From: a virus
Taxonomy: Duplodnaviria; Caudoviricetes
DNA length: 64,000 nucleotides
Strand: one strand, 5' to 3'
Virus record (IMG/VR): IMGVR_UViG_3300044656_000252
Coordinates: 12,232 to 76,231 of that record
Below, in pieces: positions 9,681 to 64,000 of this stretch (position 1 is the first letter of the stretch; every line of letters begins with the position of its first letter). The notes below the pieces were generated by a model that worked only from the letters and a program-made list of their open reading frames with translations, was not told the DNA's origin and searched no databases. The position numbers and the translations under genes are program-made.

Positions 9681-9693
9681 TCCAACCCAGTCC

Positions 9694-9727
9694 GGTGGGC
9701 GTGGCTGTGGCGGCTGCCACGCCCACC
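9694..9727 (+). terminator. Hairpin after capsid gene
   Basis: GGTGGGCGTGGC...GCCACGCCCACC 12-bp stem. Confidence 0.6.
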
Positions 9728-9752
9728 ATCTGTCGCACGCAGGGAGAACGCC

Positions 9753-10244
9753 GTGGACGACGACACCCTCGCTGAGGACGTGTTCGACGACGAATCACCG
9801 GCCTACGAGCACAGCGACGAGGTGGACGAGTCGGGCCCGGAGGAACCGCAGTTGCCGGTCTCCGACGTGACAGAGCAGTTCCCCGCAGTCGACGGCACCG
9901 AAGAGGGCCTGCACACCGAAGTCGCGCAGCGCGCGGTCGACGGTGCCGACGAGGACATGTGGCACAAGGTGTTCCGCGTCGGCCGGATCGGTGTCACGGA
10001 GGACGACCCGATCCACCGACAGAACGCCGTCGCCGTCGTGCAGGAAGCGGTGCAGCGCGGCCTCCACCCGCGGGGCGACGTGTACCTCGTCGCCATCGAG
10101 GAGACCGACGAGCCGCTCAACGCCTCGGGTTCCCGCCGGATGCGGCACACCGACCTGCGGTACGCGGTGCAGGTCGTGCCGGCCTCCATCGACACCGAGC
10201 CGGGCGAAACCACCACGGCGCAGGACATCCACGCCGCCGAGTAG
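9753..10244 (+). CDS. Hypothetical head-region protein with acidic N-terminus
   Basis: GGGAGA RBS; position after capsid. Confidence 0.7.
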   Translation: MDDDTLAEDVFDDESPAYEHSDEVDESGPEEPQLPVSDVTEQFPAVDGTEEGLHTEVAQRAVDGADEDMWHKVFRVGRIGVTEDDPIHRQNAVAVVQEAVQRGLHPRGDVYLVAIEETDEPLNASGSRRMRHTDLRYAVQVVPASIDTEPGETTTAQDIHAAE

Positions 10245-10281
10245 CGGCAGCACGACCTGCGAGTCGGAGGGGAGGGACAGT

Positions 10282-11556
10282 ATGGCAGCGACCGGGTACG
10301 TCGGCGGAGACCCGACCAAGGTCTCGAAGGCCGGGGACACGATGACCGGCGCGCTCGTGCTGCCCGGCGACCCCACCGCTGCGTTGCAGGCCGCCGACAA
10401 GAACTACGTCGACAGCGTCACCTCGGCCGGCGTGGCCGACGCGACGACCACCACCAAGGGCAAGGTGCAGCTGGCCGGCGACCTGAGCGGCACGGCGGCT
10501 GCGCCGACCGTCCCTGCGCTCACCAGCAAGGTCGGTACCTCCCGCCAGATCCTCACCGGCGCCGGTCTGTCCGGCGGCGGGGACCTCACCGCCGACCGCA
10601 CCCTCTCGGCGACTGACGCCACCACGCTGGCCAAGGGCATCGTGCAGCTCGCCGGGGACCTCGGAGGCACTGCGGCGTCCCCGACTGTGCCTGGCCTCGC
10701 CAGCAAGGCGCCCACGACCCGGCTAATCACCGCCGGCACTGGCCTGTCCGGCGGCGGTGACCTGAGCGTGGACCGGACTCTGGCGGTCGTCTACGGCACC
10801 GCGAGCGGGACTGCGGCGCAGGGCAACGACAGCAGGATCACCGGCGCCGTGCAGGCATCGACGGCCACGACGAAGGGTGATCTGCTCGTCGCCACGGCGG
10901 CGGCCGCCATCGGCCGGCTCGGCGTCGGCTCGGACGGCCAGGTGCTCACCGCCGACTCCACGCAGACCACTGGGGTCAAGTGGGCTATGGCGTCCGGCGG
11001 CGGCTCGGTCGGGATGGACGAGGTGTTCCCGCTGTCCGCCTACGGACTGCTCGCGGCATCTGGCGACCCGAACGAGTTCCAGAACCAGTCCGGGGTGAGT
11101 GCCAACACGGTGTTCATGGCGCGCGTCTGGATCCCGGCCAACACCGCGATCTCCAAGCTGTGCGCCGCCGTCCGGACCGGCGGCACCTACGCGTCGAGCG
11201 CCACGCCAAACCAGCTCGCCATCTACGACGACACCGGCGTCCAGAAGGGCATCACCACCGACGACAGCACCCTGTGGACCACCGCCGGGTGGGCCGCCCG
11301 CACGATCACCACCATCGCCGCGCAGGGCACCGGCCGGTGGATGTACATCGGGTACATCGTCGGTGGCTTCACGGGCGTCTCGATGCCGTTCCCCATGGGA
11401 GCCAACGACAACAACGCGCCGTGGCTCGGTCAGACGATCAACAACTCGGGCAATCGCAGGGCGTTCTACCTGACCGCGACCTCCCTGCCCGCCTCGTTCA
11501 ACCCGACCAGCGCCGGCACGAACACTGGCTACGTCCCGCTGGTGGGTGCGGCATGA
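10282..11556 (+). CDS. Fibre-like protein with tandem repeats (possible head fibre)
   Basis: Two ~60-aa repeats DATT..KG.VQLAGDL.GTAA.PTVP...GLSGGGDL..DRTL; beta-rich C-terminal domain. Confidence 0.7.
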   Translation: MAATGYVGGDPTKVSKAGDTMTGALVLPGDPTAALQAADKNYVDSVTSAGVADATTTTKGKVQLAGDLSGTAAAPTVPALTSKVGTSRQILTGAGLSGGGDLTADRTLSATDATTLAKGIVQLAGDLGGTAASPTVPGLASKAPTTRLITAGTGLSGGGDLSVDRTLAVVYGTASGTAAQGNDSRITGAVQASTATTKGDLLVATAAAAIGRLGVGSDGQVLTADSTQTTGVKWAMASGGGSVGMDEVFPLSAYGLLAASGDPNEFQNQSGVSANTVFMARVWIPANTAISKLCAAVRTGGTYASSATPNQLAIYDDTGVQKGITTDDSTLWTTAGWAARTITTIAAQGTGRWMYIGYIVGGFTGVSMPFPMGANDNNAPWLGQTINNSGNRRAFYLTATSLPASFNPTSAGTNTGYVPLVGAA

Positions 11557-12308
11557 CCCAGGTAGCGCAGGGCCAGTCGATCACCCTCACCGCACAGTGG
11601 TACGCCTACGCCGGCGGCCCGGCCGTGGACGTGTCCGGGCTGACGATCGGCATCACCGCGCCGGACAGCACGGTCGACGTGGCCACCACCTCGATCGGCA
11701 TCGTGCACGTCACCACCGGCGTCTACCAGTACACGTGGGCGGTTCCGGCCTCCGCGGTGCTCGGCGACCACGTCGCGGTGTGGAACGCCACCTACAACAG
11801 CAACCCTGTCACGGCGTCGGAGGTCGTGACAGTGCTGGCCGCGAGCACCGGAACGTGGGCGCAGATCGGCGACGTCCTCGCACTTACCGGCATCACGGTC
11901 ACGCCGCAGGCGCTGGCGGAGGCCAACGCGATCATCGAGATGTTCGCGCGCCGCACCTATGCCCTGGCCCACGCCAACACCGGGTCGCGGGACGCCGAGT
12001 GGATGAAGCGGGCGGTCGCGTACGAGGCCGTGTGGCTCGCCGGGCAGCCGGACCTGTTCACACGGCTCGACGTCACCATGATCTCCGAGGGCCGGAAGTC
12101 CATCGGCCTCAAGGAAGAGACGCTGCTCATCGCGCCCCTCGCGCGGAAGGCACTGTCCCGCGTGTCGTGGCTGCGGACCCGCTCGGTGCACATCCGGTCG
12201 CCGTTCCAGGACGGCATGACCCCGATCTCGCCCGACCCCGATTCGGCAGGCAACGACTTCTACGAGGTGTGGTCGCCCGCGGGCTACGGATCGTGGGGGA
12301 GTGGCTGA
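11553..12308 (+). CDS. Head-tail adaptor with Ig-like N-terminal domain
   Basis: Position; beta-rich N-terminal ~95 aa (TTGVYQYTW) then helical connector-like part. Confidence 0.65.
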   Translation: MTQVAQGQSITLTAQWYAYAGGPAVDVSGLTIGITAPDSTVDVATTSIGIVHVTTGVYQYTWAVPASAVLGDHVAVWNATYNSNPVTASEVVTVLAASTGTWAQIGDVLALTGITVTPQALAEANAIIEMFARRTYALAHANTGSRDAEWMKRAVAYEAVWLAGQPDLFTRLDVTMISEGRKSIGLKEETLLIAPLARKALSRVSWLRTRSVHIRSPFQDGMTPISPDPDSAGNDFYEVWSPAGYGSWGSG

Positions 12309-28591: not shown

Positions 28592-28849
28592 GTGACATGG
28601 CCTACGCCGACCCAGCTGATTCGACAGCGCCGTAGACCGAGGCGCGTCTACTACGGCCGACCGTACTGGTCACGCGCCTGGTTCTGGTGGACTGGCGCGT
28701 TCATGTTCGTGCTGATGTTCTGGTTCGTCGCCTTCTCGGTGTGGCTCGTGTACGCAATGGTGTGGGCGATGGTCGAGGGTGTCCGCTGGATCGCGACACG
28801 GCCGGGCAGCAACTCGCGGGGGCGGCAGGTGGAGGGGGAGAGCCAGTGA
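28592..28849 (+). CDS. Small membrane protein
   Basis: GAAGGAG RBS; Trp-rich TM segment. Confidence 0.6.
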   Translation: MTWPTPTQLIRQRRRPRRVYYGRPYWSRAWFWWTGAFMFVLMFWFVAFSVWLVYAMVWAMVEGVRWIATRPGSNSRGRQVEGESQ

Positions 28850-29271
28850 AGAGGATCATCCCGGTGGCCGCGGTGGTGTTCGCGGTGGCGAGCACGGGCG
28901 TGGCGTTCGCGGTAGCGGCGAGCGTGCCGGCACCGCAGCAGGTGTCGCGGCCGACGCCGGCCGGGCTCGTGCCGCAGACCTACGTTACGACCACGACCGC
29001 GCCGACGACGACCACACGTCCGGCGGCGCCGAGCAGCACGACGAGCACGAGCCGCGCCGGCGCGGTGCAGCCCAACGCAGTCCCGGCCGCACCAACGGAC
29101 CCCACCACGACCACCACGCAGCTGCCGGTGGCGTGCGCGTACCCGCCGGCCGCTCCCGAGCCGCCGGACCCGCAGCATCCGTCCGCGCCGCGGCGGACGC
29201 CCGCGCCGACGCCGACGGTGACTGCCGTGTTCCCGCCGGACACGTGCCCGCCGTACGTGGCTTTCCCGTGA
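28846..29271 (+). CDS. Secreted Pro/Thr-rich protein
   Basis: Signal-peptide-like VKRIIPVAAVVFAVAS; P/T-rich body; two Cys. Confidence 0.55.
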   Translation: MKRIIPVAAVVFAVASTGVAFAVAASVPAPQQVSRPTPAGLVPQTYVTTTTAPTTTTRPAAPSSTTSTSRAGAVQPNAVPAAPTDPTTTTTQLPVACAYPPAAPEPPDPQHPSAPRRTPAPTPTVTAVFPPDTCPPYVAFP

Positions 29272-29367
29272 GGTAGCTTGATCGGGCCGGGCTCTGGAAC
29301 GCACAGTGGGCGCACTGCCATCCCGGCTCCACTTCCCTGGGCCGTTACGCCTCAGCCGAGCACAGGG

Positions 29368-29403
29368 CGAAGCCCCACCGTTCCAGCGGTGGGGCTTCGT
29401 TGT
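29368..29403. terminator. Hairpin between converging genes
   Basis: CGAAGCCCCACCG-TTCCAG-CGGTGGGGCTTCG then TTGT. Confidence 0.75.
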
Positions 29404-29411
29404 ATCTGGGG

Positions 29412-29585
29412 TCAGTTGTCGGCTGGCCGGAGGCCGTCCGCCGCTGTCAGGCCGAGCATGGCGAGCAACTCGCGGCACTCGTCGGCGTCGTCCGCTTCGG
29501 TGGCGATCCGCCGCGCCGCTGCCCGCCGTTGCTCCGCCGTCAGGTCCGGCTCGTCGCTGCCGCTGTGCCGGATGTGGGTGAGCAT
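29412..29585 (-). CDS. Small hypothetical protein
   Basis: MLTHIRH...DADECRELLAMLGL. Confidence 0.55.
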   Translation of the reverse strand: MLTHIRHSGSDEPDLTAEQRRAAARRIATEADDADECRELLAMLGLTAADGLRPADN

Positions 29586-29611
29586 CCGGCCCCGTTCGTG
29601 GCTGTCCGGGC

Positions 29612-29848
29612 TCACCGTCGCCTCCGGGGTCCTTGCCGGCCGGGCATCTGCGCCTCGATCTCGGCGGTGCGCTTCCGGAGCCAGCGCGCGGCGGATTCCC
29701 ATCCGGCGGCTTCCAGTTCGCGCGCCACGTCCTTGCGCGTCTGGATGGCGGCCTCGCTGAAGTAGCGGGCGGCGATCGCGGTGACGGCGGCCTGGAACCG
29801 GGGGTCGGAGGGGTCGACTCTGTCGTCCTCGGATGGTGACGCGCTCAT
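29612..29848 (-). CDS. Hypothetical protein (78 aa)
   Basis: AGGAGAG RBS upstream on the - strand. Confidence 0.55.
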   Translation of the reverse strand: MSASPSEDDRVDPSDPRFQAAVTAIAARYFSEAAIQTRKDVARELEAAGWESAARWLRKRTAEIEAQMPGRQGPRRRR

Positions 29849-30115
29849 GCACTCTCCTGGCGTAGCGGCGGTTGGCGGGGAGAGTACGTGTGGTTGGCGC
29901 GGTCGGGTGATTTTCGTCTCGGGCGTGTCGGCGTGCCGGGTGATCGTTTCTCACATTCGGCGGCTGCCGCTCCGGCCTATTCCGAATGCGTTCGCTTTCA
30001 CGCGGAATCATACGGTCATAATGCGGCCGCCAAGGTCAACATTGCGATCAGGTCACTGCCTTTGCATCGTGATATCACTCTTGTATCAAAGTGAAACAAG
30101 CTGCTCTACTACCCC

Positions 30116-30493
30116 ATGCCGCACGACCAGCAACACCTCGCCCGCATCGTCGACCAGCTCGCCGGAGGAGACATGGCCCCGACACAGCTCGCCGAGCTGC
30201 CCGACGACCAGCTCGCCGCCGTCGGACGGATAGCGGCGCAACGACGCGAAACCGATCAGGACGTGGTCGGACAGGTCGCCGCCGAGTTCAACCAGAACCG
30301 CGGCCGGCCGTGGCGGGAAATCGCCGCCCTGCTCGAGCAGGAATCGCACGCGACCATCTACCGCTGGGCGCGCCCGTTCCTTGCGTCCCCAGACTCAGTG
30401 TCAACGGCAGGTTCACAACCAGTGAACCCCACGGCATCTCAGCCCCATCTACTCGAACCCAAGATCGAGCACCTACCGCTGGGGAGCGACTGA
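30116..30493 (+). CDS. Putative HTH DNA-binding protein
   Basis: GRPWREIAALLEQESHATIYRW. Confidence 0.6.
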   Translation: MPHDQQHLARIVDQLAGGDMAPTQLAELPDDQLAAVGRIAAQRRETDQDVVGQVAAEFNQNRGRPWREIAALLEQESHATIYRWARPFLASPDSVSTAGSQPVNPTASQPHLLEPKIEHLPLGSD

Positions 30494-30495
30494 CC

Positions 30496-31302
30496 ATGAA
30501 AATCACTGGTGACGCCGAGCGCACCCTCGCCGTCATCTCGATCGGCGTGTGGGGTGTCGCGCTCGTCGTCATGGCCGTATCCGCCACGACGGCGGCCGAC
30601 CTGTTCCGGCTGCACAGCGCGAACTGGACGCAGGGCCTGGCGCTCGGGCTGGCCATCGACGCGGCGCTCGCGGTGGCGCTGGTCGGCGACAAGGCGCTCG
30701 CCCAGCTCGGCCTCTCGTCGCGCTGGGGCACCGCGCTGCGGTGGGCGGCGACGGTGATGTCGTTGGTGCTGAACTGCTCGGCCGCGTGGCTGGCCGGCGA
30801 CGCATTGGGCGTGACGCTGCACGCGATCCCGCCAGCACTGTTGATCGTCCTCACCGAGGCCGCGCAGTCGTACCGGACCGCGCTGGCCGAGCATCACATG
30901 AAGATCGCCGCCGAGCAGGAGCGGCTCGCCGCCGCTGCACGCCAGAAGGCGGAGCAGGAGGCACAGGCCCAGCGCGAGCAGGAGAAGCGGCAGCGGGACG
31001 AGGCTGCTGCAGCGCGCCGGCGGGAGCGCGAGGCCACTGCGGCGCCGTCGAAGCCGCTGGTGCTGGTGAAACCGACTGTCGGGCTCGACGTGCCGGAGGA
31101 CGCGTCACTGAAGGACAAGGCCCGCGCATGGTTCATGCGAGAGGCGTTCAAGACCGACCGACACTGGGAGTCCATCTCGGCCGTCGAGTGCGACCGGGCG
31201 GTCGGCGCTTCCGAGGGCATGAGCAAGAAGCACATCAAGGGCTGGCGTGCCGAAGTCGCCGCTGCCATGGGCAACTCCGGCACCGCCGCGGCCGGGAACT
31301 GA
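30496..31302 (+). CDS. DUF2637/SpdA-like membrane protein
   Basis: 4 TM helices (LAIDAA..ALV; SLVLNC..AW; HAIPPALL..LTE), coiled coil, possible C-terminal HTH. Confidence 0.75.
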   Translation: MKITGDAERTLAVISIGVWGVALVVMAVSATTAADLFRLHSANWTQGLALGLAIDAALAVALVGDKALAQLGLSSRWGTALRWAATVMSLVLNCSAAWLAGDALGVTLHAIPPALLIVLTEAAQSYRTALAEHHMKIAAEQERLAAAARQKAEQEAQAQREQEKRQRDEAAAARRREREATAAPSKPLVLVKPTVGLDVPEDASLKDKARAWFMREAFKTDRHWESISAVECDRAVGASEGMSKKHIKGWRAEVAAAMGNSGTAAAGN

Positions 31303-31313
31303 AGGGAAAGAAC

Positions 31314-31514
31314 ATGAACGTCTACCTGGTGTGCGCGATCCTCGGCGTGCTCGCCGTCGTCGCCTTCGGCCGCGGCTGGACCAAGTCCGGCTTCGCCGCG
31401 CTCGTCCTGTTCGGCGTGATGCTCGCGACCACCGCCATCGGCCCGAACCTCCAACACGGCGTGTCCACCGGCGTGGACAGCGCCATCGCCACCGTCAAGT
31501 CGTTCTTCAGCTGA
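31314..31514 (+). CDS. Small 2-TM protein (Spd-like by position)
   Basis: 66 aa, hydrophobic; GGGAAAG RBS. Confidence 0.6.
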   Translation: MNVYLVCAILGVLAVVAFGRGWTKSGFAALVLFGVMLATTAIGPNLQHGVSTGVDSAIATVKSFFS

Positions 31515-31533
31515 CCATCCGAGGAGTCCCGCC

Positions 31534-31803
31534 ATGATCACCACCACCGAGCAGGCCGTCGCGTTCTGGGCGGCCGAGGCCGCCAAGGTCGACCGACTCA
31601 TCACCGACCTCGACGACCTGATGCCCGCCACCCACAACGGCGAGACGCCGTTCACCGAGCAGACCCGCGAGGACGTCGAGGGCGCGCTGTTCCAGGCCCG
31701 CCTCGCCGCGGACACCGTGCTCGGTGCCTACACGCGCGTGCTGCACCAGGAGCGGGCGAACCCGCCGCAGCCGTCCGGCCCGTACAGCCAGCCGCGTTAC
31801 TGA
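31534..31803 (+). CDS. Hypothetical protein
   Basis: GAGGAG RBS; ORF track. Confidence 0.65.
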   Translation: MITTTEQAVAFWAAEAAKVDRLITDLDDLMPATHNGETPFTEQTREDVEGALFQARLAADTVLGAYTRVLHQERANPPQPSGPYSQPRY

Positions 31804-31827
31804 TCCGGTGAAGGAAGGAGTCCCCCG

Positions 31828-33165
31828 GTGGTTACCGTCGCGCCCGAGCAGCCGCAGCGGGAGAGGTGGATCTCTCCCCATGCGCTGCTGGGCGCTACCA
31901 GCGCGGGGAGCGCCGGCATGACGACGGCTGGGCTGATCGCGGGACCGACAGGTGTCGTGGTGGTGACGGCGGCGGGCGCGTTGACCGCTGGCGGGATCGC
32001 GGCGGTGCGCAGGTTCGCGCCGGGCGCGGCGGAGAAGCTGGGGCTGCGGAAGCCGGACAAGAAGGCCGACAAGAAGTCGGACGGCAAGTCCAAGGCGAAC
32101 GGCCCCGGCAAGGGCCTCGGGGGCAGGGGCGGTCTCGGTCGTCTCGGCCTGCTGGGTGCCGGCGGTCGCAAGAAGGGCGCCGGTGACGGTGGCGGCCGGA
32201 AGCGTGGCGGCGGCCTGCTGGGGATGGCCCGCAACATCGCCGGCAAGGGAGCCGGCCTGGCCAAGCGGGGCGCGAACGCCGCAGCGAAGAAGGGCGCTGG
32301 CCTGCTTGGCGGCAAGGACCCGACTCGCAGGAATGCCCGCGGCCGTAACGGGTCTGGGCCGGCCGGCGGGAAGCAGCGTGGTGTCGGTGGCCCGACCGGT
32401 CGTGGTCGTGGGGCCGGTAGCGGCCCGGGGCGCGGCAAAGGCCCCGGCGGCAAGAGCAACAGCGGCAAGGATCGGAGCAGCGGCCGCGGCTTGGGGGGCC
32501 GGCTCGGCCGCACCGCCGCAAGCCTTGTCGGCTGGGGCGCGCGCCGCTTGTTCGGCCTGAAGCGTCCCTCCGACACCAACTCCGCATCGACGGGGCATGG
32601 CGGAGGGAAGCCGAAGGACAGGAAGAAGCGCACCAAGGGCTCGGGGCTGCTCGGTGGCCGGGGCGCGGAGCGCATGCCGGACAGCGCGAGGCCCAAGGAC
32701 CGCAAGGGCAAGAAGGACAAGAGCCGCACGAAGAACGTTCCGCCGGGCCGCGGGCCGCGGCGGGAGGTCACAGCAGGACAGCCGGACCGGAGTGGCCGGC
32801 GCGCACATGGAGGAACGACGATGCCCGATCCGTTCGCGAGTCGCCGCGAGGCGATCTCGGGGGCCGCACCGCTGGAGATCAACAAGGCTGGTGACGTCGC
32901 CGACTACGTCAAGCACGCCCCCGACTACGCCGAAGCGCAGGCCCGCGGGTGGCTGCGTGACGCCGACACGATCGTCGAGAAGGTGAACCTGAACCCGGAC
33001 TTCACCGACGCCCTGAAGGGGTTCGCGAACACGCAGCTGGCCGCCGTCCAGGCGGTGCGTGAGTACGGGGCCGTGTTCGAGCGCAGCCACGCCGAGAAGC
33101 TGCGGCGGACGCGCGACCGGGACCCGCGTGAGGCCATGTGGGACGTCGACCGTCACCGCGACTGA
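31828..33165 (+). CDS. TraA-like protein: TM, long G/K/R-rich linker, helical C-terminal domain
   Basis: Directly upstream of traB; C-terminus FERSHAE...PREAMWDV resembles actinomycete plasmid proteins found before TraB. Confidence 0.55.
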   Translation: MVTVAPEQPQRERWISPHALLGATSAGSAGMTTAGLIAGPTGVVVVTAAGALTAGGIAAVRRFAPGAAEKLGLRKPDKKADKKSDGKSKANGPGKGLGGRGGLGRLGLLGAGGRKKGAGDGGGRKRGGGLLGMARNIAGKGAGLAKRGANAAAKKGAGLLGGKDPTRRNARGRNGSGPAGGKQRGVGGPTGRGRGAGSGPGRGKGPGGKSNSGKDRSSGRGLGGRLGRTAASLVGWGARRLFGLKRPSDTNSASTGHGGGKPKDRKKRTKGSGLLGGRGAERMPDSARPKDRKGKKDKSRTKNVPPGRGPRREVTAGQPDRSGRRAHGGTTMPDPFASRREAISGAAPLEINKAGDVADYVKHAPDYAEAQARGWLRDADTIVEKVNLNPDFTDALKGFANTQLAAVQAVREYGAVFERSHAEKLRRTRDRDPREAMWDVDRHRD

Positions 33166-33187
33166 CCGATCCGAGACGAGGACGACC

Positions 33188-35674
33188 ATGACCGCGCCAG
33201 CCACCCAGGATGCGCCGCCGACTGACGAGAAGCCGGCCAAGGCCAAGAAGCAGAAGCCCGAGGCGACCCCGCCGAAGCGCGGTCTCGGTGACGCGCTGCG
33301 CGAGTTCGAGCCGGACTTGCGCTGGTTCCTGCCGGCGGTCGCCGCCTGCCAGGCGTACACGCTGGCGGCGATTCCGGTGTGGACCGGGCTGCCGTCCTGG
33401 GTGCTCGTCGCGCCCGGCGTGGCATCGACGGCGGCGGGTGTGTGGCTGGCCCGGCACTTCTACAAGGCCGTCGAGTACGGGCACGAGCAGCGGCGCGCGG
33501 CGCAGGCCATCGCGGTCGGCGCCGGCGTGCTGATGACCGCGTGGATGGTGTTCGCCGGCAGCGGGAACCCGCTGCGGCCGGTGGCGCTTGGCGCGCTGCT
33601 GCTGGTGGCGTTGGTGTGCGGGGCAGCGTTCGGCGCCCTGCACACCCGGGCCCCGTCGGTGAAGGCCGAGGTCGAGGCCAAGCGCACCGAGGTCATCGAG
33701 GCCAACTCGGAGCGCGTGGCCGAGGTCGAGCTGGCCAAGACCCGGGACGAGTGGCAGGAGATCGCCGACCAGGCCCGACCCGGGTGCGGCATCACCGTCG
33801 TCGGCCGGGCGGACCAGCCGGGTGGCTTCTACGTCGACTTCGCTGACAACCCCACCAAGCCGATCAAGTGGGTGGGATTCTGCGACATGGTCGGCTCGAT
33901 GCTGTCGATCGCCTCGGCGCGACTGGCGCCGTCCGGGATCGTCCTGTCTGAAGGCGACCTGAGCCCGGAGCAGCCGGAGGGTATGCCGGCGCACCTGTTT
34001 CGGCTGCACGTGTTCACGTCGAACGAGTTCGCCCAGAGCCTGCCGTACCCGATGGACCGGCCGGTCGGCACGATCGTCGAGCCGCGGATCATCGGCCGCT
34101 ACAAGGACATGTCGCCGCTGGGGGTGTGCCTGTGCGGCAACCACGGCGTGATGTGCGCCGGCACCGGCGGCGGGAAGACGGTGTGCGCGAACTGCCTGAT
34201 CGCCGGGGTGCTCGAGTGTGGCGACGCCGAGGTGTGGATGGGTGGCACGTCGAAGCTGACGCCGTTGGCCTACCCGTGGCTGCTGCCGTGGCTGCTGGGT
34301 CGCACCACCCGACCGGTGATCCAGTACGTGTCGGGTGAGGACCCGCGCAGCGTCACCGAGATGCTCGCTGAGCTGTACCGGGAGGCGAAGCGCCGCAACT
34401 CGAAGCTGGGCCGCCGGTCGAAGCACGCGCCGTCGAAGGACGAGCCCGCGCTGGTGTGCTTCATCGAGGAAGCGTCCGACCTGCTGATGAACCACAGCGA
34501 GGTGCGGGTCCCCACGTTCGACGGGCACAGTTGGAACGCCTCGCAGATCTTGAACGCGATCGCGCAGATCGCCCGCGCCGCGAGCATCTCGATCTTCCTG
34601 CTGACCCAGTTCGGGATCATGGACGCGCTGGGCACCCACGGGTCGCTGATGCGCCGCAACCTGACGATCCGAATCTGCGGCCGCACCTACACCTACAGCG
34701 ATGGCCGGGACATCCTGACCGCGATCAGCGCACCTGACACGACCAAGCTGAAGGACAACACGCTGCTGGTGCAGCCCGCGATGGAGGAGCCGCGGGTGAT
34801 GGCGGCGAAGGCGTACTTCCTGGACGGGGCGGAGACGATCGGCCCGGTCGCCGAGAAGTACACAGCACGCCGCACGGAATGGGAACCGCCGCTGGCTGGT
34901 GACGCTTTCCGCGAGCGGTGGAGCGCGCTGCGGCTGCCCGAGTTGGCCGCTATCGCAGCGGATGAGGGTCTATCGTGGCCCGGAAGTGTGCACACAGGGT
35001 CACGAGCCGCGGAGGTAATTGATCAGCCGGCGCTGCCGGTCGCGGCTCCCGATAAGGGGAGCGACACCATGTCGGATGATGTGAAGGCGATGCTGAGCGA
35101 TGCGCAGGCCCAGATGGATGTGGCGATCGAGTCGGCCCGCAAATACGGCCCGCTCGGCCCGCTGATGGGCGAAGTCTTCAACAAGGTGAATGCCGAGAAC
35201 GCTCCCGAGTTCATTCCCGCCGGACAGCTCGCGTACGGCCTGGGGCGTGTCCTCAAGGACGGGGACTGGGACACGGCGGGGGACACCCTGGCCGGGGAGC
35301 TGGCGGGGAAGCCGTGGTACCTGTCCCCGACCCGTCAGGAGGGGACGTTGGGGTGGCCGCGGGACCTGATCCTGGGGACGATCCGCGCGTTCCTCGAGGG
35401 ACGCCCTGTCCCCGGCGAGGGGACGACCGAGGGGACGGACCTGTCGGCTGGGGAGACCTTGGGGGTCTTGGTGCGGGAGCTGGCCGGGGACGACCGCGAG
35501 TTCGTCACCGCGGTCGACGCCGCCGCCATGGTCGGGATGAGCGCGGCGGCGTTGCAGCGGATGCTCGAGGGCGAGCCGTTCAGGCTGCCGATGCAGCGAC
35601 CCCGCACGGTCACGGATGGTGAGCGGCCGCGTGGCTGGTTCGTGGCGGATCTGCGCCGCGCTGCTGGCATGTGA
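33188..35674 (+). CDS. traB: TraB-type FtsK/SpoIIIE conjugative DNA translocase
   Basis: 4 N-terminal TM helices; Walker A AGTGGGKT; Walker B variant VCFIEEAS; R...ISIFLLTQ; C-terminal wHTH-like segment. Confidence 0.85.
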   Translation: MTAPATQDAPPTDEKPAKAKKQKPEATPPKRGLGDALREFEPDLRWFLPAVAACQAYTLAAIPVWTGLPSWVLVAPGVASTAAGVWLARHFYKAVEYGHEQRRAAQAIAVGAGVLMTAWMVFAGSGNPLRPVALGALLLVALVCGAAFGALHTRAPSVKAEVEAKRTEVIEANSERVAEVELAKTRDEWQEIADQARPGCGITVVGRADQPGGFYVDFADNPTKPIKWVGFCDMVGSMLSIASARLAPSGIVLSEGDLSPEQPEGMPAHLFRLHVFTSNEFAQSLPYPMDRPVGTIVEPRIIGRYKDMSPLGVCLCGNHGVMCAGTGGGKTVCANCLIAGVLECGDAEVWMGGTSKLTPLAYPWLLPWLLGRTTRPVIQYVSGEDPRSVTEMLAELYREAKRRNSKLGRRSKHAPSKDEPALVCFIEEASDLLMNHSEVRVPTFDGHSWNASQILNAIAQIARAASISIFLLTQFGIMDALGTHGSLMRRNLTIRICGRTYTYSDGRDILTAISAPDTTKLKDNTLLVQPAMEEPRVMAAKAYFLDGAETIGPVAEKYTARRTEWEPPLAGDAFRERWSALRLPELAAIAADEGLSWPGSVHTGSRAAEVIDQPALPVAAPDKGSDTMSDDVKAMLSDAQAQMDVAIESARKYGPLGPLMGEVFNKVNAENAPEFIPAGQLAYGLGRVLKDGDWDTAGDTLAGELAGKPWYLSPTRQEGTLGWPRDLILGTIRAFLEGRPVPGEGTTEGTDLSAGETLGVLVRELAGDDREFVTAVDAAAMVGMSAAALQRMLEGEPFRLPMQRPRTVTDGERPRGWFVADLRRAAGM

Positions 35675-35724
35675 GTCGTGCCGCGGGTGCCCTCCGGTCG
35701 TGCTCGGCTGGAGGGCATCGCTGT

Positions 35725-35972
35725 GTGGACCACCGCGTGGACCGGGCGTGGGCCGGCGTGGTCGTCGGCGTGGACCGGGTGTGGACCACCGGTCGGTGTG
35801 GACCAGCCGGTCCATGGCCGGTGACCTGGGATGGTCCACGTTGTCAACGATGTCACGCGAGTGGTCCACGTGGACCAGCAGGACAGGTGCCGCAAATACC
35901 TGACCTGCGGAAACAGTCGCAACACCCCCTGTGTCGGGTGGTCCACGCAAACAGGCGTGGACCGTGTGGACC
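35725..35972. repeat. GTGGACC repeat array, putative clt/TraB recognition locus
   Basis: 8 forward copies (35725, 35737, 35770, 35781, 35798, 35870, 35957, 35966) and 3 reverse copies (35833, 35863, 35940) directly after traB. Confidence 0.8.
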
Positions 35973-35993
35973 ACAAGCGAGGAGCACACGCTG

Positions 35994-36749
35994 ATGATGG
36001 GCCGAACGCACGCGTTGTCCGGGTGGTGCGCGGGGCTACTGGTGGCTCCGTTGCTCGGCGCGGCCAGCCCGGCGCAGTCACTGTTAGTGGCGGCGACGGT
36101 GGCCGGCTGGAGTCTGGCGCCGGACCTGGATCACCCGGGCGCGGTGGCGACGCGGTGGGGCGGCTGGGTGACGGGCTGGTTGTCGCTGGCGCTGCGGGAG
36201 CTGTCGGCAGTGGCGTTCGAGGCGACGCGGACTCCCCGGGATCGGGACAGCGAGGGGACGCACCGGCACCTCAGCCACACCTTCGTGTTCGCCGCGGTGG
36301 TCGGCGGGGTCACCGCGCTGGGGACTGCCCTGTCCCCTTGGTGGGGAGTGCTGCTCCCCGTGACGGTGGGGACTCTGCTGGCCGGGAGGTCCCTGGGGAG
36401 GTGGGTGCTGGGGGCGGGGGCTGTCCCCGTGGTGTGGGGACTCCTGGCGGGTGGGGACGAGCTGTCCCCCGTGCGCGGCTGGATCGGCGTGGCGGTCGCT
36501 CTTGGGTGTGTGGTGCACATCTTGGGGGATGCTCTGACGCGTGCGGGTGTGCCGTTCTTGTGGCCGCTGCCTATTCGTGGCCAGCGGTGGTTCCGGATAG
36601 CCACTCCGTATGGCCTGCGCTTTCGTGCTGGTGGTGGTGCTGAGCGTCTGCTGGTCTTTCCGTTGTTCGTTGTCTTGGGTGTTGCTCTCTTTCCGGGTGT
36701 TCTGTCGGTCGCTGTCGGTGTGGTGACCGGTGCGATAGGGGCTCGTTAG
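35994..36749 (+). CDS. YdjM/YbcI-family membrane metal-dependent hydrolase
   Basis: MMGRTH, APDLDHPG, HRHLSHT, HILGDALT..GVPFLWP. Confidence 0.88.
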   Translation: MMGRTHALSGWCAGLLVAPLLGAASPAQSLLVAATVAGWSLAPDLDHPGAVATRWGGWVTGWLSLALRELSAVAFEATRTPRDRDSEGTHRHLSHTFVFAAVVGGVTALGTALSPWWGVLLPVTVGTLLAGRSLGRWVLGAGAVPVVWGLLAGGDELSPVRGWIGVAVALGCVVHILGDALTRAGVPFLWPLPIRGQRWFRIATPYGLRFRAGGGAERLLVFPLFVVLGVALFPGVLSVAVGVVTGAIGAR

Positions 36750-36804
36750 CCGCGCACCGTCAAAGCCTTTTGTTGCTCCATTCGTGTGGCGTCGGACTCA
36801 GGTC

Positions 36805-36834
36805 TTGCGCTAGGCACCCATGGGTGCCTAGAGT
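36805..36834 (+). promoter_or_regulatory. Promoter with a 22-bp perfect palindrome
   Basis: -35 TTGCGC, 18-bp spacer, -10 TAGAGT; palindrome CTAGGCACCCATGGGTGCCTAG at 36810-36831. Confidence 0.7.
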
Positions 36835-36878
36835 AGTTCGTGTCAGGCCACAGAGAACCAGCCACCAAGGAGACCGAG

Positions 36879-37229
36879 ATGAGCAAGTTCCGGGGCGACT
36901 ACCAGGACACCGACAACGGCGAGCTGGCCGACCTGATCGGCGACGAGCCGGGACAGCCCGGAATGGTGCGAGTCCGCTTCTTCGACGGCAGCGAGGACAT
37001 CATGCCGAAGGCCATGTTCGAGTGGCAGTTCGAGTACTCGCCGGTCGAGGATGACGACGACGAGTGGACCGACGAGGACGAGGCGCGTGTGCAGGCGTGG
37101 CGCGACCGGGAGGCCCGGAAGGCGGCCGAGGTCCAGGAGCGCATCCACCGCGAGTGGTTCGCCCGCTACGGCAAGCACTACCCCTGCTGCGACTGCACCT
37201 GGATGCCTGCGGAGCTGGCGGCGGCCTGA
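36879..37229 (+). CDS. Hypothetical protein
   Basis: AAGGAG RBS; downstream of the palindromic promoter. Confidence 0.65.
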   Translation: MSKFRGDYQDTDNGELADLIGDEPGQPGMVRVRFFDGSEDIMPKAMFEWQFEYSPVEDDDDEWTDEDEARVQAWRDREARKAAEVQERIHREWFARYGKHYPCCDCTWMPAELAAA

Positions 37230-37280
37230 CGGCGAGGGGCCCGGTATCGGGCCCCTTCCCTCCCAGCAGGAGAGACGATC

Positions 37281-37628
37281 ATGACCGACAAGCACGAGCC
37301 GACCGCCTTCGACGAGGTGCTGGCCTGGTTGGACACGCTGCCGCCGATCCAGCGTGCCAGGTGGCTGGGCGCGCTGCTGGACACCCGGAACGCGAGGGGG
37401 CTCACCGCTGTCCGCGTGGACGCCATCTACGAGGAGACCAGGAGGCGCACGTACGACGAGGTTGCGGCTGAGCTGGGCGTGTCGCGGTCGGCGGTGCGGA
37501 ATGCCGTGAAGGCTCACAACGAGCGGCTGACGGTGGCCGGCGAGCATGGGCTGGCGTCTTGGCCTGACGCTACTGAATCGACACAGAACATCGCGGCGCG
37601 AGGCGCCCAACGTGAGGAGCAGCAGTGA
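37281..37628 (+). CDS. HTH DNA-binding protein
   Basis: RTYDEVAAELGVSRSAVRNAV. Confidence 0.75.
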   Translation: MTDKHEPTAFDEVLAWLDTLPPIQRARWLGALLDTRNARGLTAVRVDAIYEETRRRTYDEVAAELGVSRSAVRNAVKAHNERLTVAGEHGLASWPDATESTQNIAARGAQREEQQ

Positions 37629-37831
37629 AGGTGCCGACTGACGAGGAGCTGGCCAGCGCGCGGGTGTTCGTGCAGCGGGAGGGCGTGCAGGTGCCGATCG
37701 ACGCCGACTGGTACGTGCTCACCGACGGCCGGGTGCTGGTCCGGCATCGGGCGACGGGCGGCTGGGAGCCGTCACTGTTCGACGCCGCCGCGGTCACGGC
37801 AGACGGCGGGGACTGGGTACTGAAGCCGTAG
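37625..37831 (+). CDS. Hypothetical protein
   Basis: GTGA overlap. Confidence 0.55.
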   Translation: MKVPTDEELASARVFVQREGVQVPIDADWYVLTDGRVLVRHRATGGWEPSLFDAAAVTADGGDWVLKP

Positions 37832-37882
37832 ACAACTGGTGCGCTGCGCCCCTGACCTTGCGGGTCGGGGGCGTTACCGTAT

Positions 37883-38155
37883 TCAGCGCTTGATCGCGGC
37901 CAGCGCCTGCCCTGGCGTCCAGCAGGGGTGTTCGGTGCGGCGGAACTCGACGGGCTTCAGCGGCGGCCTGACCGGCTGCGCTCGGCTGGCGGTGAGGGCG
38001 TCGGCGGCGTGCTGGTGCACGTCGCGTCCGTGAATGGTCTCGGGCAGGTGCTGGGCGTCCCAGCGGGCGCAGGCGAGCTCGTGGTCGCGCTCCTCGTCGG
38101 GTACATCGAGCTCGGCGGCGAGGCGGTGGTATTCGGCGGCGTCCATGCAGGTCAT
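37883..38155 (-). CDS. Hypothetical protein divergent from GntR gene
   Basis: ORF track. Confidence 0.5.
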   Translation of the reverse strand: MTCMDAAEYHRLAAELDVPDEERDHELACARWDAQHLPETIHGRDVHQHAADALTASRAQPVRPPLKPVEFRRTEHPCWTPGQALAAIKR

Positions 38156-38186
38156 CCTGCGCCGACGGGTGGCTGCGCATCAAGGT

Positions 38187-38224
38187 TTGAGTTACGCAAC
38201 TATCCTAGCTAACCTAGTGGAATG
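38187..38224 (+). promoter_or_regulatory. Promoter for a probably leaderless GntR transcript
   Basis: TTGAGT-17bp-TAACCT-6nt-ATG; two CTAG tetramers overlap the -10. Confidence 0.55.
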
Positions 38225-38647
38225 AGGACAATCGACCCTAACGACCCCACCCCGGCGAGCCGGCAAATCGCCGACGCCATCCGCGACGCGATCCGCACCG
38301 GCGAGATCGCCGAGGGCGAGCGCATCCCCGGCCAGGCGGCGCTCATGGCCCACTTCGGCGTCGCCAAGGGCACCGTCGACACCGCCCTCACCGCCCTCAA
38401 GACGGAGGGCCTGCTGATCGGTCGGCAAGGCGCGGGCGTGTATGTCCGGACGAGCACGAAGGACGGCACCGCCGAGGTTGAGCGATCCGCCACGGTGCTC
38501 TACGACGCCAGCCTCGGTGCCCTGACGGTGCGGCTCGATATGACTGACGACGAGCCGCCCGGCGACTTCTGGATCCGCTCGGTCAGAGTGAAGCTCGTAT
38601 ATCCGGAGGGCTCGTCCAACTGGGGCGAGCGGTACCTCTCTCGCTAG
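38222..38647 (+). CDS. GntR-family wHTH regulator (KorSA/TraR-like)
   Basis: RQIADAIRDAIRTGE..EGERIPG...LMAHFGVAKGTV..AL..LKTEGLL..RQGAGVYVR. Confidence 0.9.
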   Translation: MRTIDPNDPTPASRQIADAIRDAIRTGEIAEGERIPGQAALMAHFGVAKGTVDTALTALKTEGLLIGRQGAGVYVRTSTKDGTAEVERSATVLYDASLGALTVRLDMTDDEPPGDFWIRSVRVKLVYPEGSSNWGERYLSR

Positions 38648-50433: not shown

Positions 50434-51090
50434 TCATCCCGCCGGACGCAGAGCCCGGCGCCGGTCCTCACCCTTCAGCGCCACCTGGCGGGACATTTCC
50501 CTCAACCGCGACGCCACCCGCTCGCCGAGCCCGTTGCGGAGCTCCGCGCCGCCGAGGTTGCTGGTGACGATCGTGGCCAGGTGGTGTTCGTACCGGTGGT
50601 TGATCACCCGGAACGTGATCTCCTCCGTCCACTCCGACGTCTTGGCCGCGCCGAGGTCGTCGAGCAGCAACAGCGGGATCTTCTGGTAGCGGGCCATGGC
50701 TGCCTCGGGGTTGCCACGCTCCTTCGGCCGCAGTTCGGCGTAGAGGTCGGCGGCGGTGATGGCGGCCCAGCTGACGGCGACGCCGCTGTGGGCGATCTGC
50801 CGGATCGCCCCGAACGACTCGTGTGTCTTGCCCGTGCCAACCGGCCCGAGCAGGAGCAGCGAGGGTCCTGTCGCGACGATCGGGTTGAACGCCCGTGCCG
50901 ACTTGGCCGCGCTGTGGCACAGCTCGACGGCCCAGGCGCGCACGCCGGGGTCGGTGACGGTGGCCTCGCGGTAGTGGACCGGCACGTCGGCGAGGGCCGC
51001 GTCGGCGTTGGCCTGGTTGGTCTCGACCCAGTGCGGGTCCAGGCCCGGGTAGGCGTCGATCAGGTCGAGCAGCGCGAGTTCGTGCATCAC
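50434..51090 (-). CDS. DnaC/IstB-like helicase loader ATPase
   Basis: GPVGTGKT, LLLLDDLGA, INHRYE..TIVTSN, RVASRL. Confidence 0.92.
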   Translation of the reverse strand: MMHELALLDLIDAYPGLDPHWVETNQANADAALADVPVHYREATVTDPGVRAWAVELCHSAAKSARAFNPIVATGPSLLLLGPVGTGKTHESFGAIRQIAHSGVAVSWAAITAADLYAELRPKERGNPEAAMARYQKIPLLLLDDLGAAKTSEWTEEITFRVINHRYEHHLATIVTSNLGGAELRNGLGERVASRLREMSRQVALKGEDRRRALRPAG

Positions 51091-52034
51091 AGGTCCTCGT
51101 CGTAGATGGAGTGATCGGTCGGGCTCCGGAAGGGCTGATAGCCGCCGGCGGCGGCGCGCAGCTGGGGCCGCTGGGGCTCGTCGTCCCAGCAGCCCTTGTT
51201 GAGCCAGGTGGCCGGGTGCTTGGTGTAGGTCGGGTCCTGGCCGGCCCGCTCAGCGGCGTAGCGACGCACGCCGGCGATGAGCTCGTCCGCGGTGGCCCCG
51301 TCCTTGATGGCCTTGTCCCAGGCGCGGCGGGCGTCCTTCTTCCCGACCTTCTTGGGATAGACCCTCCAGAACTCGTCGAACTGGGCGGTCGTGATCGCCA
51401 CCGGCGGCGGGGGAGAGAGATCTATTGGCAGTTCAATTGGCAGTTCACTGGCAGTTGTAGCCGGGGTGACCTGCGGTTGTAACGGTTGTGGGGCCGTGAC
51501 AAACGGCGTGCCGCGCCGTGACTCACGCACTGCCGCGCCGTGACTCACGGCCTGCGACGCCGTGACCGTCACGTCCTCGCGCGCCGTGACTGTCACGCTC
51601 TCCGAGACCGTGACATCACGGTCTGGCGCACCGTGACCGGCGGCCTCCTGAGCCCTCCGCTCGCGGTGCCGCCGCTGCCGCTCGCGGTCGGCCAGGCGCC
51701 GCCGCTCCCGGTGCTGGTCGACCACCGACGGCCCGGTGTTGACGACCTCGAGGTGCAGCCGCCACACCACGGTGCCGCCGGTGAGGCAGGCCGTCTTCGA
51801 GATCAGGCCGGCTGCCTGGATCCGGTCGAGCGCCTCGGACACGTACTTCGGCGTGAGGTAGCAGTCGTCGGCGAGTAGGTCGAGCCCGGGGCGGGCCTCG
51901 CTGCCGTCCTTCTTGGCGTAGGTGGCCAGCACGAGCAGCACGTGATGTGCAGTGGTGTCGACGCGCCCGTCGGCGCGCAGCATCGGCGGCACGTTCTTGG
52001 CCCAGTTGATCGGACTGAACGCTGTCGGTCGCAT
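51087..52034 (-). CDS. Phage replication initiator
   Basis: N-terminal wHTH; FDEFWRVYPKKVGK..A..AW; KHPATWLN..CWDDE; adjacent to the DnaC-like gene. Confidence 0.85.
   Translation of the reverse strand: MRPTAFSPINWAKNVPPMLRADGRVDTTAHHVLLVLATYAKKDGSEARPGLDLLADDCYLTPKYVSEALDRIQAAGLISKTACLTGGTVVWRLHLEVVNTGPSVVDQHRERRRLADRERQRRHRERRAQEAAGHGAPDRDVTVSESVTVTAREDVTVTASQAVSHGAAVRESRRGTPFVTAPQPLQPQVTPATTASELPIELPIDLSPPPPVAITTAQFDEFWRVYPKKVGKKDARRAWDKAIKDGATADELIAGVRRYAAERAGQDPTYTKHPATWLNKGCWDDEPQRPQLRAAAGGYQPFRSPTDHSIYDEDL
51495..51637. repeat. Iteron-like CCGTGAC repeats, putative origin
   Basis: Seven CCGTGAC copies (about 51495, 51516, 51538, 51560, 51584, 51608, 51631), five closed by TCACG. Confidence 0.75.
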
Positions 52035-59769: not shown

Positions 59770-60321
59770 TCACCCGACCGGTGGGAGGGACTGCGTCGCC
59801 ACGTAAAAGGACAACGCCGTCACCGACGGCCCATCCGGAACCTGCCCGCTAGCCAGGAGCTTCGGCACATCGGCCAGCGGCACCCACTCAACGCGTTCCG
59901 ACTCCGCCGCGTCCGACGATCCCACCAGCTCGGCGCCGCCGGCCACGAACACCCTGTACAGGTGATCGCTGATCCCCGCCATCGGCGCGTACGTGGTCAG
60001 CAACGCCACGCGCGACACCCGGTAGCCGGTTTCCTCCAGAACCTCCCGGGCGGCGGCTTCCGCCGGATCCTCCCCGGGGTCAGACCATCCGGCCGGGATC
60101 TCCCATCCCCACAGGTCCGTGGTGAAGCGGTGCCGCCACAACAGCAGGACACGTTGCTGGTCGACAACGATGGTGCCGACGGAGGACCGCGGATACCGCA
60201 GCACGTGGTGCTCGAACCGTTGCCCGTCGGGTATCTCCACGTCGTCCAGATCGACGTTGACCCATGGTGACTCGTACACCCTCCGCGTGCCGTGCGTGAT
60301 CCACCGCGACGAGTCAGCCAC
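59770..60321 (-). CDS. Nudix hydrolase (ADP-ribose pyrophosphatase-like)
   Basis: WEIPAG..DPGEDPAEAAAREVLEETGY Nudix box; VYESPWV. Confidence 0.93.
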   Translation of the reverse strand: MADSSRWITHGTRRVYESPWVNVDLDDVEIPDGQRFEHHVLRYPRSSVGTIVVDQQRVLLLWRHRFTTDLWGWEIPAGWSDPGEDPAEAAAREVLEETGYRVSRVALLTTYAPMAGISDHLYRVFVAGGAELVGSSDAAESERVEWVPLADVPKLLASGQVPDGPSVTALSFYVATQSLPPVG

Positions 60322-63757: not shown

Positions 63758-64000
63758 GTCCGCCTCCACCGTCCATGATCAAATGCAAGCGTGGGTTTTT
63801 TGCGGGGATCGCCGAAAGTGGGACCGCTGAAGTCGTATCCGCCCGCGCTGAGCTGGAACGATAGCAGGGTCTAGTCATGAACGTCGAGTTCTAGCCATAC
63901 CCGCAGGTCAAGACGGTTTCATGGGTTTGGGTAAGGTCGAGCAGCCATGATCCACAGTGTGGCCCCGCGTGACTCCGGATCGATCAGCAACCGGACGGCC

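Follow-up and report, generated by a model that had tools for sequence, protein, structure and literature searches.

We analysed a gene block on the + strand at positions 30116-38647 of a 64,000-nucleotide stretch of tailed-phage DNA (the window), which comprises bases 12232-76231 of the 76,231-bp IMG/VR virus record IMGVR_UViG_3300044656_000252. A frame plot of G+C content at third codon positions (GC3), from which the gene map was drawn together with family searches, places the block in the interval bounded by the lysis region on one side and the convergent early genes on the other, where the original prediction from the DNA letters had also put it. Within the block lies a gene for an 828-aa ATPase (33188-35674, + strand), followed by a GC-rich hairpin and a dense array of GTGGACC repeats. 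The original prediction interpreted this arrangement as a TraB-type conjugation module carried by an integrative tailed phage, i.e., as a hybrid of a phage and an actinomycete integrative and conjugative element (AICE). Our comparisons support a TraB-type ATPase and point to a module that is native to phages.

A TraB-like ATPase and the repeat array behind its gene

The ATPase gene most likely starts at position 33188, and hence its product has 828 aa instead of 871. Both nucleotide-binding motifs named in the original prediction are present in the translation: the Walker A motif GTGGGKT within CAGTGGGKT, and the Walker B motif FIEEA within VCFIEEASD. An exhaustive search returned 384 cluster representatives at E ≤ 0.001, and across the 68 relatives that were used as the AlphaFold alignment, the catalytic residues K330 and E428 are invariant. 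The AlphaFold2 model, which has a predicted local distance difference test score (pLDDT) of 90.3, consists of membrane helices at residues 44-150, an alpha/beta domain at 203-276, an FtsK-type motor at 300-560, a disordered linker at 601-627, and two C-terminal winged-helix-like units at 675-736 and 754-827, each modelled with a helix-strand-helix-helix-hairpin topology. The expected N-terminal transmembrane helices are seen both in the model (helices 44-66, 70-91, 99-125, and 131-196) and in the hydropathy plot (peaks at 104-122 and 132-150). When the model is compared with known structures using Foldseek, the FtsK motor is found first (1e-13, template modelling score 0.64), then the conjugation coupling protein TcpA, and then EccC/EssC. 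A sequence search of the PDB with the ATPase returned nothing relevant, and there is no match in it to the FtsK gamma domain (PF09397), which one relative that is 39% identical (P0015) does carry as an insert.

Comparison of profiles with hhalign resolves the family relationship. The phage-clade profile was set against NF041214 TraB proteins of actinomycete genomes (two above the cut-off of that model), FtsK and EccC of two complete relatives, and pIJ101 Tra. It aligns with the TraB group of NF041214 type at 1.5e-23 over 369 columns, spanning both the membrane part and the motor, with a Streptomyces linear-plasmid translocase at 1.4e-22 (356 columns), and with TraB-like proteins of Mycobacteriales genomes at 6e-54 (477 columns). 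For pIJ101 Tra, the values range from 1.4e-8 to 1.5e-13, the latter over 369 columns. By contrast, the alignments with FtsK (6e-9, 197 columns) and EccC (3.8e-10, 191 columns) cover the motor only, and the TraB group profile in turn places the phage clade (6.6e-25) ahead of FtsK (1.4e-15). Because these profile scores favour the TraB group, the ATPase does not cluster with FtsK or type VII secretion proteins, and by this measure it is a divergent member of the TraB branch, in agreement with the TraB-type assignment made originally. A type VII secretion ATPase was considered separately and ruled out by the single ATPase domain and the lower profile score.

Standard models vary in how much of this branch they recover. 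pIJ101 Tra itself has no match to NF041214 at E ≤ 0.1, and that model therefore covers only part of the known TraB proteins. When two complete genomes are scanned with PF01580 at E ≤ 1e-5, their FtsK and EccC proteins are listed and their TraB-like genes (G174:C1 8549984-8551840 and G373:C1 2523899-2525674) are absent; surveys based on PF01580 therefore undercount the clade.

Just past the ATPase stop codon, an inverted repeat with 13-nt arms and a 4-nt loop forms the GC-rich hairpin (35688-35717, + strand), and behind it, directly 3' of the gene, lies the clt-like array (35725-35972). The array contains 11 exact copies of GTGGACC, 8 forward and 3 inverted, as well as degenerate copies. Eleven copies in 250 bp compare with 0.04 expected (Poisson P 8e-24) and represent 11 of the 23 copies in the genome, while the 11 further copies outside the array in the 64-kb window correspond to the chance level. 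The sites are mostly spaced by 9-17 bp, several by 10-11 bp. Also within the array are a perfect 16-bp palindrome, TGGTCCACGTGGACCA, at approximately 35862-35877, and a conserved box, CTGCGGAAAC, at 35905-35914, which occurs a single time in the 76-kb genome. A second motif class, GGGGAC/GTCCCC, forms a cluster of 9 copies inside the 3' end of the ATPase gene (35261-35491, P 7e-14) and another of 8 copies inside the hydrolase gene downstream (36254-36469, P 3e-12).

Arrays recur with the ATPase gene in related elements, in which sites were counted as matches with at most one mismatch from the local motif. Directly 3' of the ATPase gene, we observe 13 sites of ATCCTGAC in G001, a circular phage genome, and 13 and 9 sites of GTGGCATGT in the chromosomal loci L004 and L005, respectively, the latter at 3648-3856. 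The array lies 1.2 kb downstream of the gene in the chromosomal copy of G274 (13 sites of GTGGCAGGT) and 2.5 kb upstream of it in the cultured Saccharomonospora phage PIS136 (at least 11 sites of GTGGAACC). The box, in the form (C)TGCGGAAA(C), is common to the arrays of the present phage, PIS136, G001, and G274. GGGGAC is likewise enriched at the 3' end of the G001 ATPase gene and in the 1.2-kb spacer after the homologous gene of pAmyja1, an Amycolatopsis japonica element described below. As a positive control, a k-mer scan of true traB loci found a 7-mer repeated 6-11 times directly 3' of the gene in the seven loci L091-L094, L102, L027, and L029, and 4 copies in an eighth locus, L096; one of the control arrays uses TGACACC, which is the clt motif of pWTY27 (PMC3583192). 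Published clt loci consist of direct and inverted 7-9-bp repeats next to tra that are bound by the TraB winged helix (PMC3583192, PMC4447253). The repeat array of the original prediction is thus found at the clt-like position that is seen in true traB loci.

The same repeats could be operators, bound by the GntR or helix-turn-helix (HTH) protein of the block or by the phage repressor so that a toxic gene stays silent, beside an ATPase that serves in host takeover or exclusion, i.e., a kil-type or superinfection-exclusion protein that, for example, expels or blocks incoming DNA or disturbs the host FtsK at septa. The inverted copies and the perfect 16-bp palindrome resemble GntR-type half sites, and GntR and HTH genes do lie downstream of the array. 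As is known from Kil-Kor systems, traB is toxic when it is not regulated (PMC4447253), and the PHROGs database places phage FtsK/SpoIIIE-like proteins in its class "moron, auxiliary metabolic gene and host takeover." However, the arrays are found 3' of the gene and behind a hairpin rather than at its promoter, such 3' arrays are also a feature of true traB loci, where they are called clt (PMC3583192), and both winged-helix-like units are part of the ATPase itself. Furthermore, arrays persist where a GntR gene is missing: tblastn found none near the ATPase gene in L004 and L005 (10-kb flanks) or G274 (20 kb downstream), nor in the whole of G001. The array therefore belongs with the ATPase, and we consider a takeover or exclusion role improbable. 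As candidates in their own right, a GntR operator was rejected on the grounds that related loci lack a GntR gene, and a replication origin was rejected on the grounds that a separate iteron set adjoins the DnaC-like gene.

Another possible role is confined to the one infected or lysogenic mycelium, without passage to other individuals. Here, the ATPase, whose motor has the FtsK fold, would act in segregation or spreading like FtsK or SpoIIIE, driving phage DNA through cross-walls or into spore compartments with the repeats as equivalents of FtsK-orienting polar sequences (KOPS) or SpoIIIE recognition sequences. Thoma et al. proposed that phage Spd homologues serve the spreading of phage DNA, TraB itself takes part in intramycelial spreading (both PMC4447253), and transmission between cells is already served by integrase and virions. 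Yet an integrated prophage segregates with the chromosome and does not need its own pump, the ATPase profile is closer to TraB than to FtsK, and GTGGACC is concentrated in one array instead of being strand-biased along the genome as KOPS are, with chance-level occurrence in the rest of the window. We regard this restricted role as unlikely.

Neighbouring genes and the phage genome

Upstream of the ATPase gene, the block begins with a gene for a soluble 125-aa protein (30116-30493, + strand) that is supported by the frame plot and has no Pfam or PHROG match. The next gene encodes a 268-aa membrane protein (30496-31302, + strand; phrog_25954, 1.8e-15), a candidate Spd-like partner in which hydropathy indicates about four N-terminal hydrophobic helices, followed by a coiled coil rich in E, A, and R and a conserved C-terminal part that is 48% identical in G001. 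The DUF2637/Spd-like label of the original prediction could not be substantiated: PF10935 (DUF2637) has no match in the whole genome at E ≤ 1, a Pfam search of the 30493-31302 protein gives nothing at E ≤ 10, and alignment of the 268-aa protein with pIJ101 SpdB by hhalign is not significant (probability 1.4%). What speaks for the label is a language-model (Atlas) lead to a cluster named DUF2637 (0.90) and to an SpdB cluster (0.83), and the TraA-like label given to another gene similarly comes down to one Atlas lead (0.77). The protein described as having two transmembrane helices is recovered as a 65-aa product with two hydrophobic helices (31317-31514, + strand; frame plot and hydropathy). 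It is followed by an 89-aa conserved ATPase partner (31534-31803, + strand), which has a 62% identical homologue in G274 just ahead of the ATPase gene pair, and by a 445-aa protein (31828-33165, + strand) whose translation has no Pfam, PHROG, or NCBIfam match. The 445-aa protein contains one N-terminal hydrophobic helix, a long low-complexity middle rich in Gly, Lys, and Arg, and, at the C-terminus, a conserved helical domain of about 120 aa. In L005, G001, and G274, a homologue of it directly precedes the ATPase gene.

Downstream of the ATPase gene is a gene with an uncertain start for a YdjM-type membrane-bound metal-dependent hydrolase (35931-36749, + strand; PF04307, 8.6e-22; phrog_20744, 7.5e-48). 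A YdjM-type hydrolase accompanies the ATPase module in two divergent phages at 47% identity (window 35931-36749; L010 15333-16046), and the homologue in G001 lies 3 kb downstream of the ATPase gene. Further along are genes for a 129-aa acidic protein (36840-37229, + strand; frame plot, with no Pfam, PHROG, or NCBIfam match) and a 115-aa helix-turn-helix protein (37281-37628, + strand; Sigma70_r4 and HTH_23 at about 2e-5, near threshold), and two open reading frames (ORFs) identified in the frame plot, one of 68 aa (37625-37831, + strand) and one of 90 aa (37883-38155, - strand) that has no Pfam match. The block ends with the gene for a short GntR-family regulator of 141 aa (38222-38647, + strand; PF00392, 6.7e-16), which has the winged-helix DNA-binding domain only, without an effector domain, and for which the closest NCBIfam models are of HutC type and match the N-terminal 80 residues only. 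The presence of a GntR gene is thus confirmed, while a KorSA/TraR role for it is at most putative, as the protein is a short form and no GntR gene accompanies the ATPase and array in four related loci. As originally noted, the block has no Pfam match to a rep or integrase. A 1.3-kb stretch with two possible reverse ORFs separates it from the late genes.

The element as a whole is a complete temperate siphophage. The ends of the record share a 127-bp terminal repeat, and the record was therefore assembled as a circle. On the + strand, the virion module includes an SPP1-type portal, a scaffold, an HK97-type capsid, an fn3 tail protein, an Rv2525c-like glycoside hydrolase, and a tape-measure candidate of 1140 aa that has no Pfam match and is 25-28% identical to the tape-measure genes of G001 and pAmyja1. 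The early genes on the - strand encode an ERF recombinase, an RNase T-type exonuclease, and a DnaC/IstB-like loader, and the tyrosine integrase that the original prediction attributed to the phage is found at 62564-63769 (- strand; PF00589, PF22022, and PF14659). ParA and ParB models (PF13614 and PF02195) have no match in the genome at E ≤ 0.01. The host family is likely Pseudonocardiaceae, as judged from the relatives, since the nearest chromosomal ATPase relatives are found in metagenome-assembled genomes of this family.

Within a 315-aa gene (51087-52034, - strand) just upstream of the DnaC/IstB-like loader, we observe seven direct copies of CCGTGAC (51494-51637), all on the + strand and spaced by 22-24 bp (P 8e-14); this set is probably the phage replication origin, located within the initiator gene. 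Near the integrase lies a gene for a NUDIX hydrolase, a Pif-like candidate (59770-60321, - strand; PF00293, 1.1e-21), and the 12 kb of the record beyond the window contain GntR/UTRA regulators, including a HutC-type GntR with a UTRA domain beyond the integrase, and a glycosylation cluster. The integrase is thereby flanked on one side by the NUDIX gene and on the other by a UTRA-only gene and the HutC-type GntR (G000 1043-2312, L003). Homologues of both sets adjoin TraB-like genes in other elements, which resembles the Pif/KorSA pair of pSAM2 type; those of the NUDIX hydrolase adjoin a GntR gene in the TraB-bearing G373 and G331 and in a Streptomyces anulatus phage-plasmid.

Related loci and the age of the module

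ATPase relatives that are 84% identical to the present protein sit on 50-54-kb contigs. A scan of viral contigs found no related loci with the single ATPase protein and G001 only with a narrow alignment, a metagenome scan gave two short fragments, and the cluster names of ten ATPase relatives were uninformative. The 90.8-kb circular genome of G001 differs in its head module and encodes a tape measure, an integrase, and a DnaC-like protein of its own. Four components of the block occur together in it: the ATPase (38% identity), the YdjM hydrolase (47%), the partner of 445 aa, and a portion of the 268-aa membrane protein. In PIS136 (JX006077.1), the ATPase is 31% identical over 84% of its length. 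Behind the full-length gene, this phage has a second, truncated paralogue of the ATPase motor (PIS_039; L001 11597-12631) that shares 34% identity with residues 285-600.

The ATPase also occurs at 29% identity in pAmyja1 (NZ_CP008954.1), an element of Amycolatopsis japonica DSM 44213 that is annotated as a plasmid but is a full tailed-phage genome: it encodes a portal, a terminase, a tail tube, a tape measure, a lysozyme, and an integrase. The ATPase gene adjoins lysis and tail genes and is followed by a 1.2-kb non-coding stretch (L104 3600-4800) with 21 copies of GGGGAC, 42 of GGGGA, and ACCCGT(C/G/A)ACG repeats. A literature search found no paper mentioning pAmyja1. In an 89.7-kb circle of Streptomyces anulatus (NZ_CP108377.1), genes for GntR, NUDIX, Tra, and KilB lie beside terminase and capsid genes, and we take this circle to be of the pZL12 plasmid-phage type from its size and gene content.

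Chromosomal copies that are 41-46% identical (L004, L005, L006, and G274) have neighbours within reach that lack phage or AICE hallmarks. Three of them, L004, L005, and L006 (from the metagenome-assembled genomes G002, G003, and G004), contain internal stops, a split frame, or a C-terminal fragment only and sit among transposase and TIR-STAND genes; they may be decaying remnants. L005, which has 46% identity, a partner homologue, and an array, comes from a genome flagged as unpublished (G003) and is used as supporting evidence only; the verdict is the same without it.

A "hypothetical protein" of a cyanophage, Microcystis phage Mwe-JY05 (PP395638.1 25832-26998), is 32% identical to residues 221-600 of the present ATPase, i.e., the alpha/beta domain and motor, which for this clade is an unexpected host range. 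On a 44.6-kb contig (G055:C1), identical TraB-like matches at 9666-11675 and 28724-30733 (L061 and L062) lie 19,058 bp apart, and this pair is probably a circular element of about 19 kb that was assembled more than once around.

These loci bear on whether the block is a recent passenger, that is, a transfer cassette of an AICE or plasmid that was newly inserted as cargo without a role in the phage life cycle. Such an origin would suit the arrangement of the module as a transcription unit of its own, 1.3 kb away from the late genes, and distant TraB relatives do have plasmid- or AICE-like surroundings that include GntR and NUDIX genes. However, no direct repeats, att site, or tRNA were found at the flanks of the block, and its GC content and composition are those of the rest of the genome. 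Moreover, phage genomes that are divergent in other respects retain the ATPase, the 445-aa partner, and YdjM at 31-47% identity, and in pAmyja1 the ATPase gene stands beside lysis and tail genes. The absence of flanking repeats of its own and the recurrence in tailed phages therefore indicate an old phage module and not a recent AICE insert; we consider recent insertion very improbable. Other tailed phages do carry such a module, with the ATPase, partners, and an array in G001, PIS136, and pAmyja1, and the block has no att site or target duplication of its own. It is the notion of a recent phage-AICE hybrid that does not fit a module conserved at 31-41% protein identity in other phage genomes.

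Proposed role and comparison with known systems

With moderate confidence, we favour the interpretation that the block is native to the phage and corresponds to the actinomycete TraB-clt system; it would dock on the genome that encodes it and pump this DNA across membranes. The 828-aa ATPase, anchored in the membrane by its N-terminal helices, would assemble into an FtsK-like ring, and its C-terminal winged-helix units would recognise the phage's own double-stranded DNA at the GTGGACC array, possibly together with the flanking GGGGAC clusters. The ring would then pump the circular phage genome across septal or mating membranes, with the small membrane proteins encoded at 30496-33165 as likely Spd-like partners. 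In this way, the excised or replicating genome could reach other hyphal compartments or neighbouring mycelium without virions, and the phage integrase and initiator would serve in place of the int and rep of an AICE. The comparisons establish the fold, the family relationship, the architecture, the array and its conservation with the gene, and the phage context, whereas DNA binding, ring formation, transfer, and the timing of expression are inferred.

Several observations weigh against this interpretation. Spd and TraA homology is not established for the neighbouring proteins, and the gene order differs from that of pIJ101 and pSVH1, in that the present phage has its membrane genes upstream and a short GntR gene on the same strand 2.5 kb away. 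The C-terminal wHTH (winged helix-turn-helix) of the original prediction agrees with the topology of both modelled units; when this domain is modelled alone (pLDDT 74.7), however, it has no significant PDB match, and its top Foldseek matches, although all winged-helix proteins (ScpB and the MarR family), have E-values of 0.06 or worse. Among the families named for a hidden Markov model (HMM) search, GntR is recovered and DUF2637 is not, while Pfam FtsK_SpoIIIE (PF01580) scores 14.5 bits against the ATPase, below its cut-off of 24, and the best NCBIfam match, NF041214 TraB, scores 21.9 bits (E 5e-5) against a cut-off of 800. The mix of forward and inverted copies and the perfect palindrome would also suit a dimeric regulator. 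Finally, three copies in metagenome-assembled genomes look degraded, which suggests that the module is not always maintained.

More tentatively, and as a possibility rather than an expectation, large temperate phages of filamentous actinomycetes (Pseudonocardiaceae and Streptomyces) might routinely keep a TraB clade that is invisible to Pfam, together with a composite docking locus in which two motif classes are read by two winged-helix units and accompanied by the TGCGGAAA box. This would allow particle-free spread through and between mycelia and perhaps mobilisation of the host chromosome while the phage is integrated.

The principle is not new, as pZL12 is a published precedent, and the design is of a known but under-recognised kind. 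What the present phage adds is an integrative representative, probably of Pseudonocardiaceae to judge from its relatives, a divergent phage-associated TraB clade that is missed by standard HMMs including PF01580, and a composite conserved cis-array signature by which further modules of this sort could be located. Cultured systems for a test are at hand in PIS136 and in A. japonica DSM 44213, the strain with pAmyja1. Given a TraB-like pump and a docking-type repeat array, a phage of a filamentous soil actinomycete may thus have a particle-free passage for its DNA from hypha to hypha as well. Should the pump operate as in plasmids, this would be a tailed phage with two transmission routes, virions and direct hyphal DNA transfer, which would change the view of host range, phage resistance, lysogen spread, and phage-driven gene flow in antibiotic-producing actinomycetes.

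When compared to the TraB/clt systems (pSVH1, pIJ101 Tra, pJV1, pWTY27 TraA, and NF041214), the phage system shares a single membrane-anchored FtsK-like motor of 650-850 aa with N-terminal hydrophobic helices, a C-terminal winged-helix-like region, and an array of 7-9-bp repeats by the 3' end of the gene (PMC3583192, PMC4447253), and the profile homology spans the membrane part and the motor. The differences are that the phage ATPase is only about 20-28% identical to these proteins, far below the NF041214 cut-off, and has two winged-helix-like units instead of one, that the phage locus combines two motif classes (GTGGACC and GGGGAC) with the TGCGGAAA box, and that the membrane partner genes, at most putatively Spd-like, lie upstream in a tailed-phage genome. 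With FtsK/SpoIIIE and EccC/EssC, the ATPase shares the motor fold and the Walker motifs, whereas the homology is limited to about 200 motor columns, PF01580 stays below threshold, FtsK_gamma is missing, and one ATPase domain is present in place of three. Annotations of large lytic Streptomyces phages routinely include FtsK-like genes, and Spd homologues on actinophages have been remarked upon (PMC4447253).

An AICE carries Int, Rep, and Tra together in an att-bounded element of 9-24 kb (Ghinet et al., PMC3218068). Unlike this arrangement, Int and Tra of the present phage are 27 kb apart in a 76-kb genome with a full virion module, and the block has neither a rep match nor flanking repeats. Accessory GntR and NUDIX genes with predicted roles are present as in AICEs, though not adjacent to the ATPase gene.

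The closest parallels in genome type are pAmyja1 and PIS136, 92-95-kb circular tailed-phage genomes of Pseudonocardiaceae with a homologous ATPase. Like the present phage, pAmyja1 has the ATPase gene beside lysozyme and tail genes, followed by a GGGGAC-rich spacer, and a tyrosine integrase in the record, while PIS136 has the GTGGAACC array and a TGCGGAAAC box. In contrast, their ATPases are annotated as "hypothetical" or "FtsK SpoIIIE" and the records propose no transfer role; pAmyja1 has ParB-like genes, and in PIS136 the array is 2.5 kb upstream and a shortened second paralogue follows the gene.

In function, the nearest precedent is the group of pZL12 (phiZL12) and pZL12-like circles, such as pSLE1 and the S. 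anulatus circle (NZ_CP108377.1), which likewise combine a virion-forming tailed-phage genome with a TraB-type transfer gene. For its conjugal transfer, pZL12 requires tra together with two genes adjacent to it (PMC3583192). Whereas both pZL12 and pSLE1 persist as plasmids and have ParA/ParB (PMC4487206), the present phage has no ParA/ParB match and has a tyrosine integrase. The S. anulatus protein is about 28% identical to the present ATPase over 160-170 aa only, and the likely host family, Pseudonocardiaceae, further distinguishes this phage from the pZL12 type.

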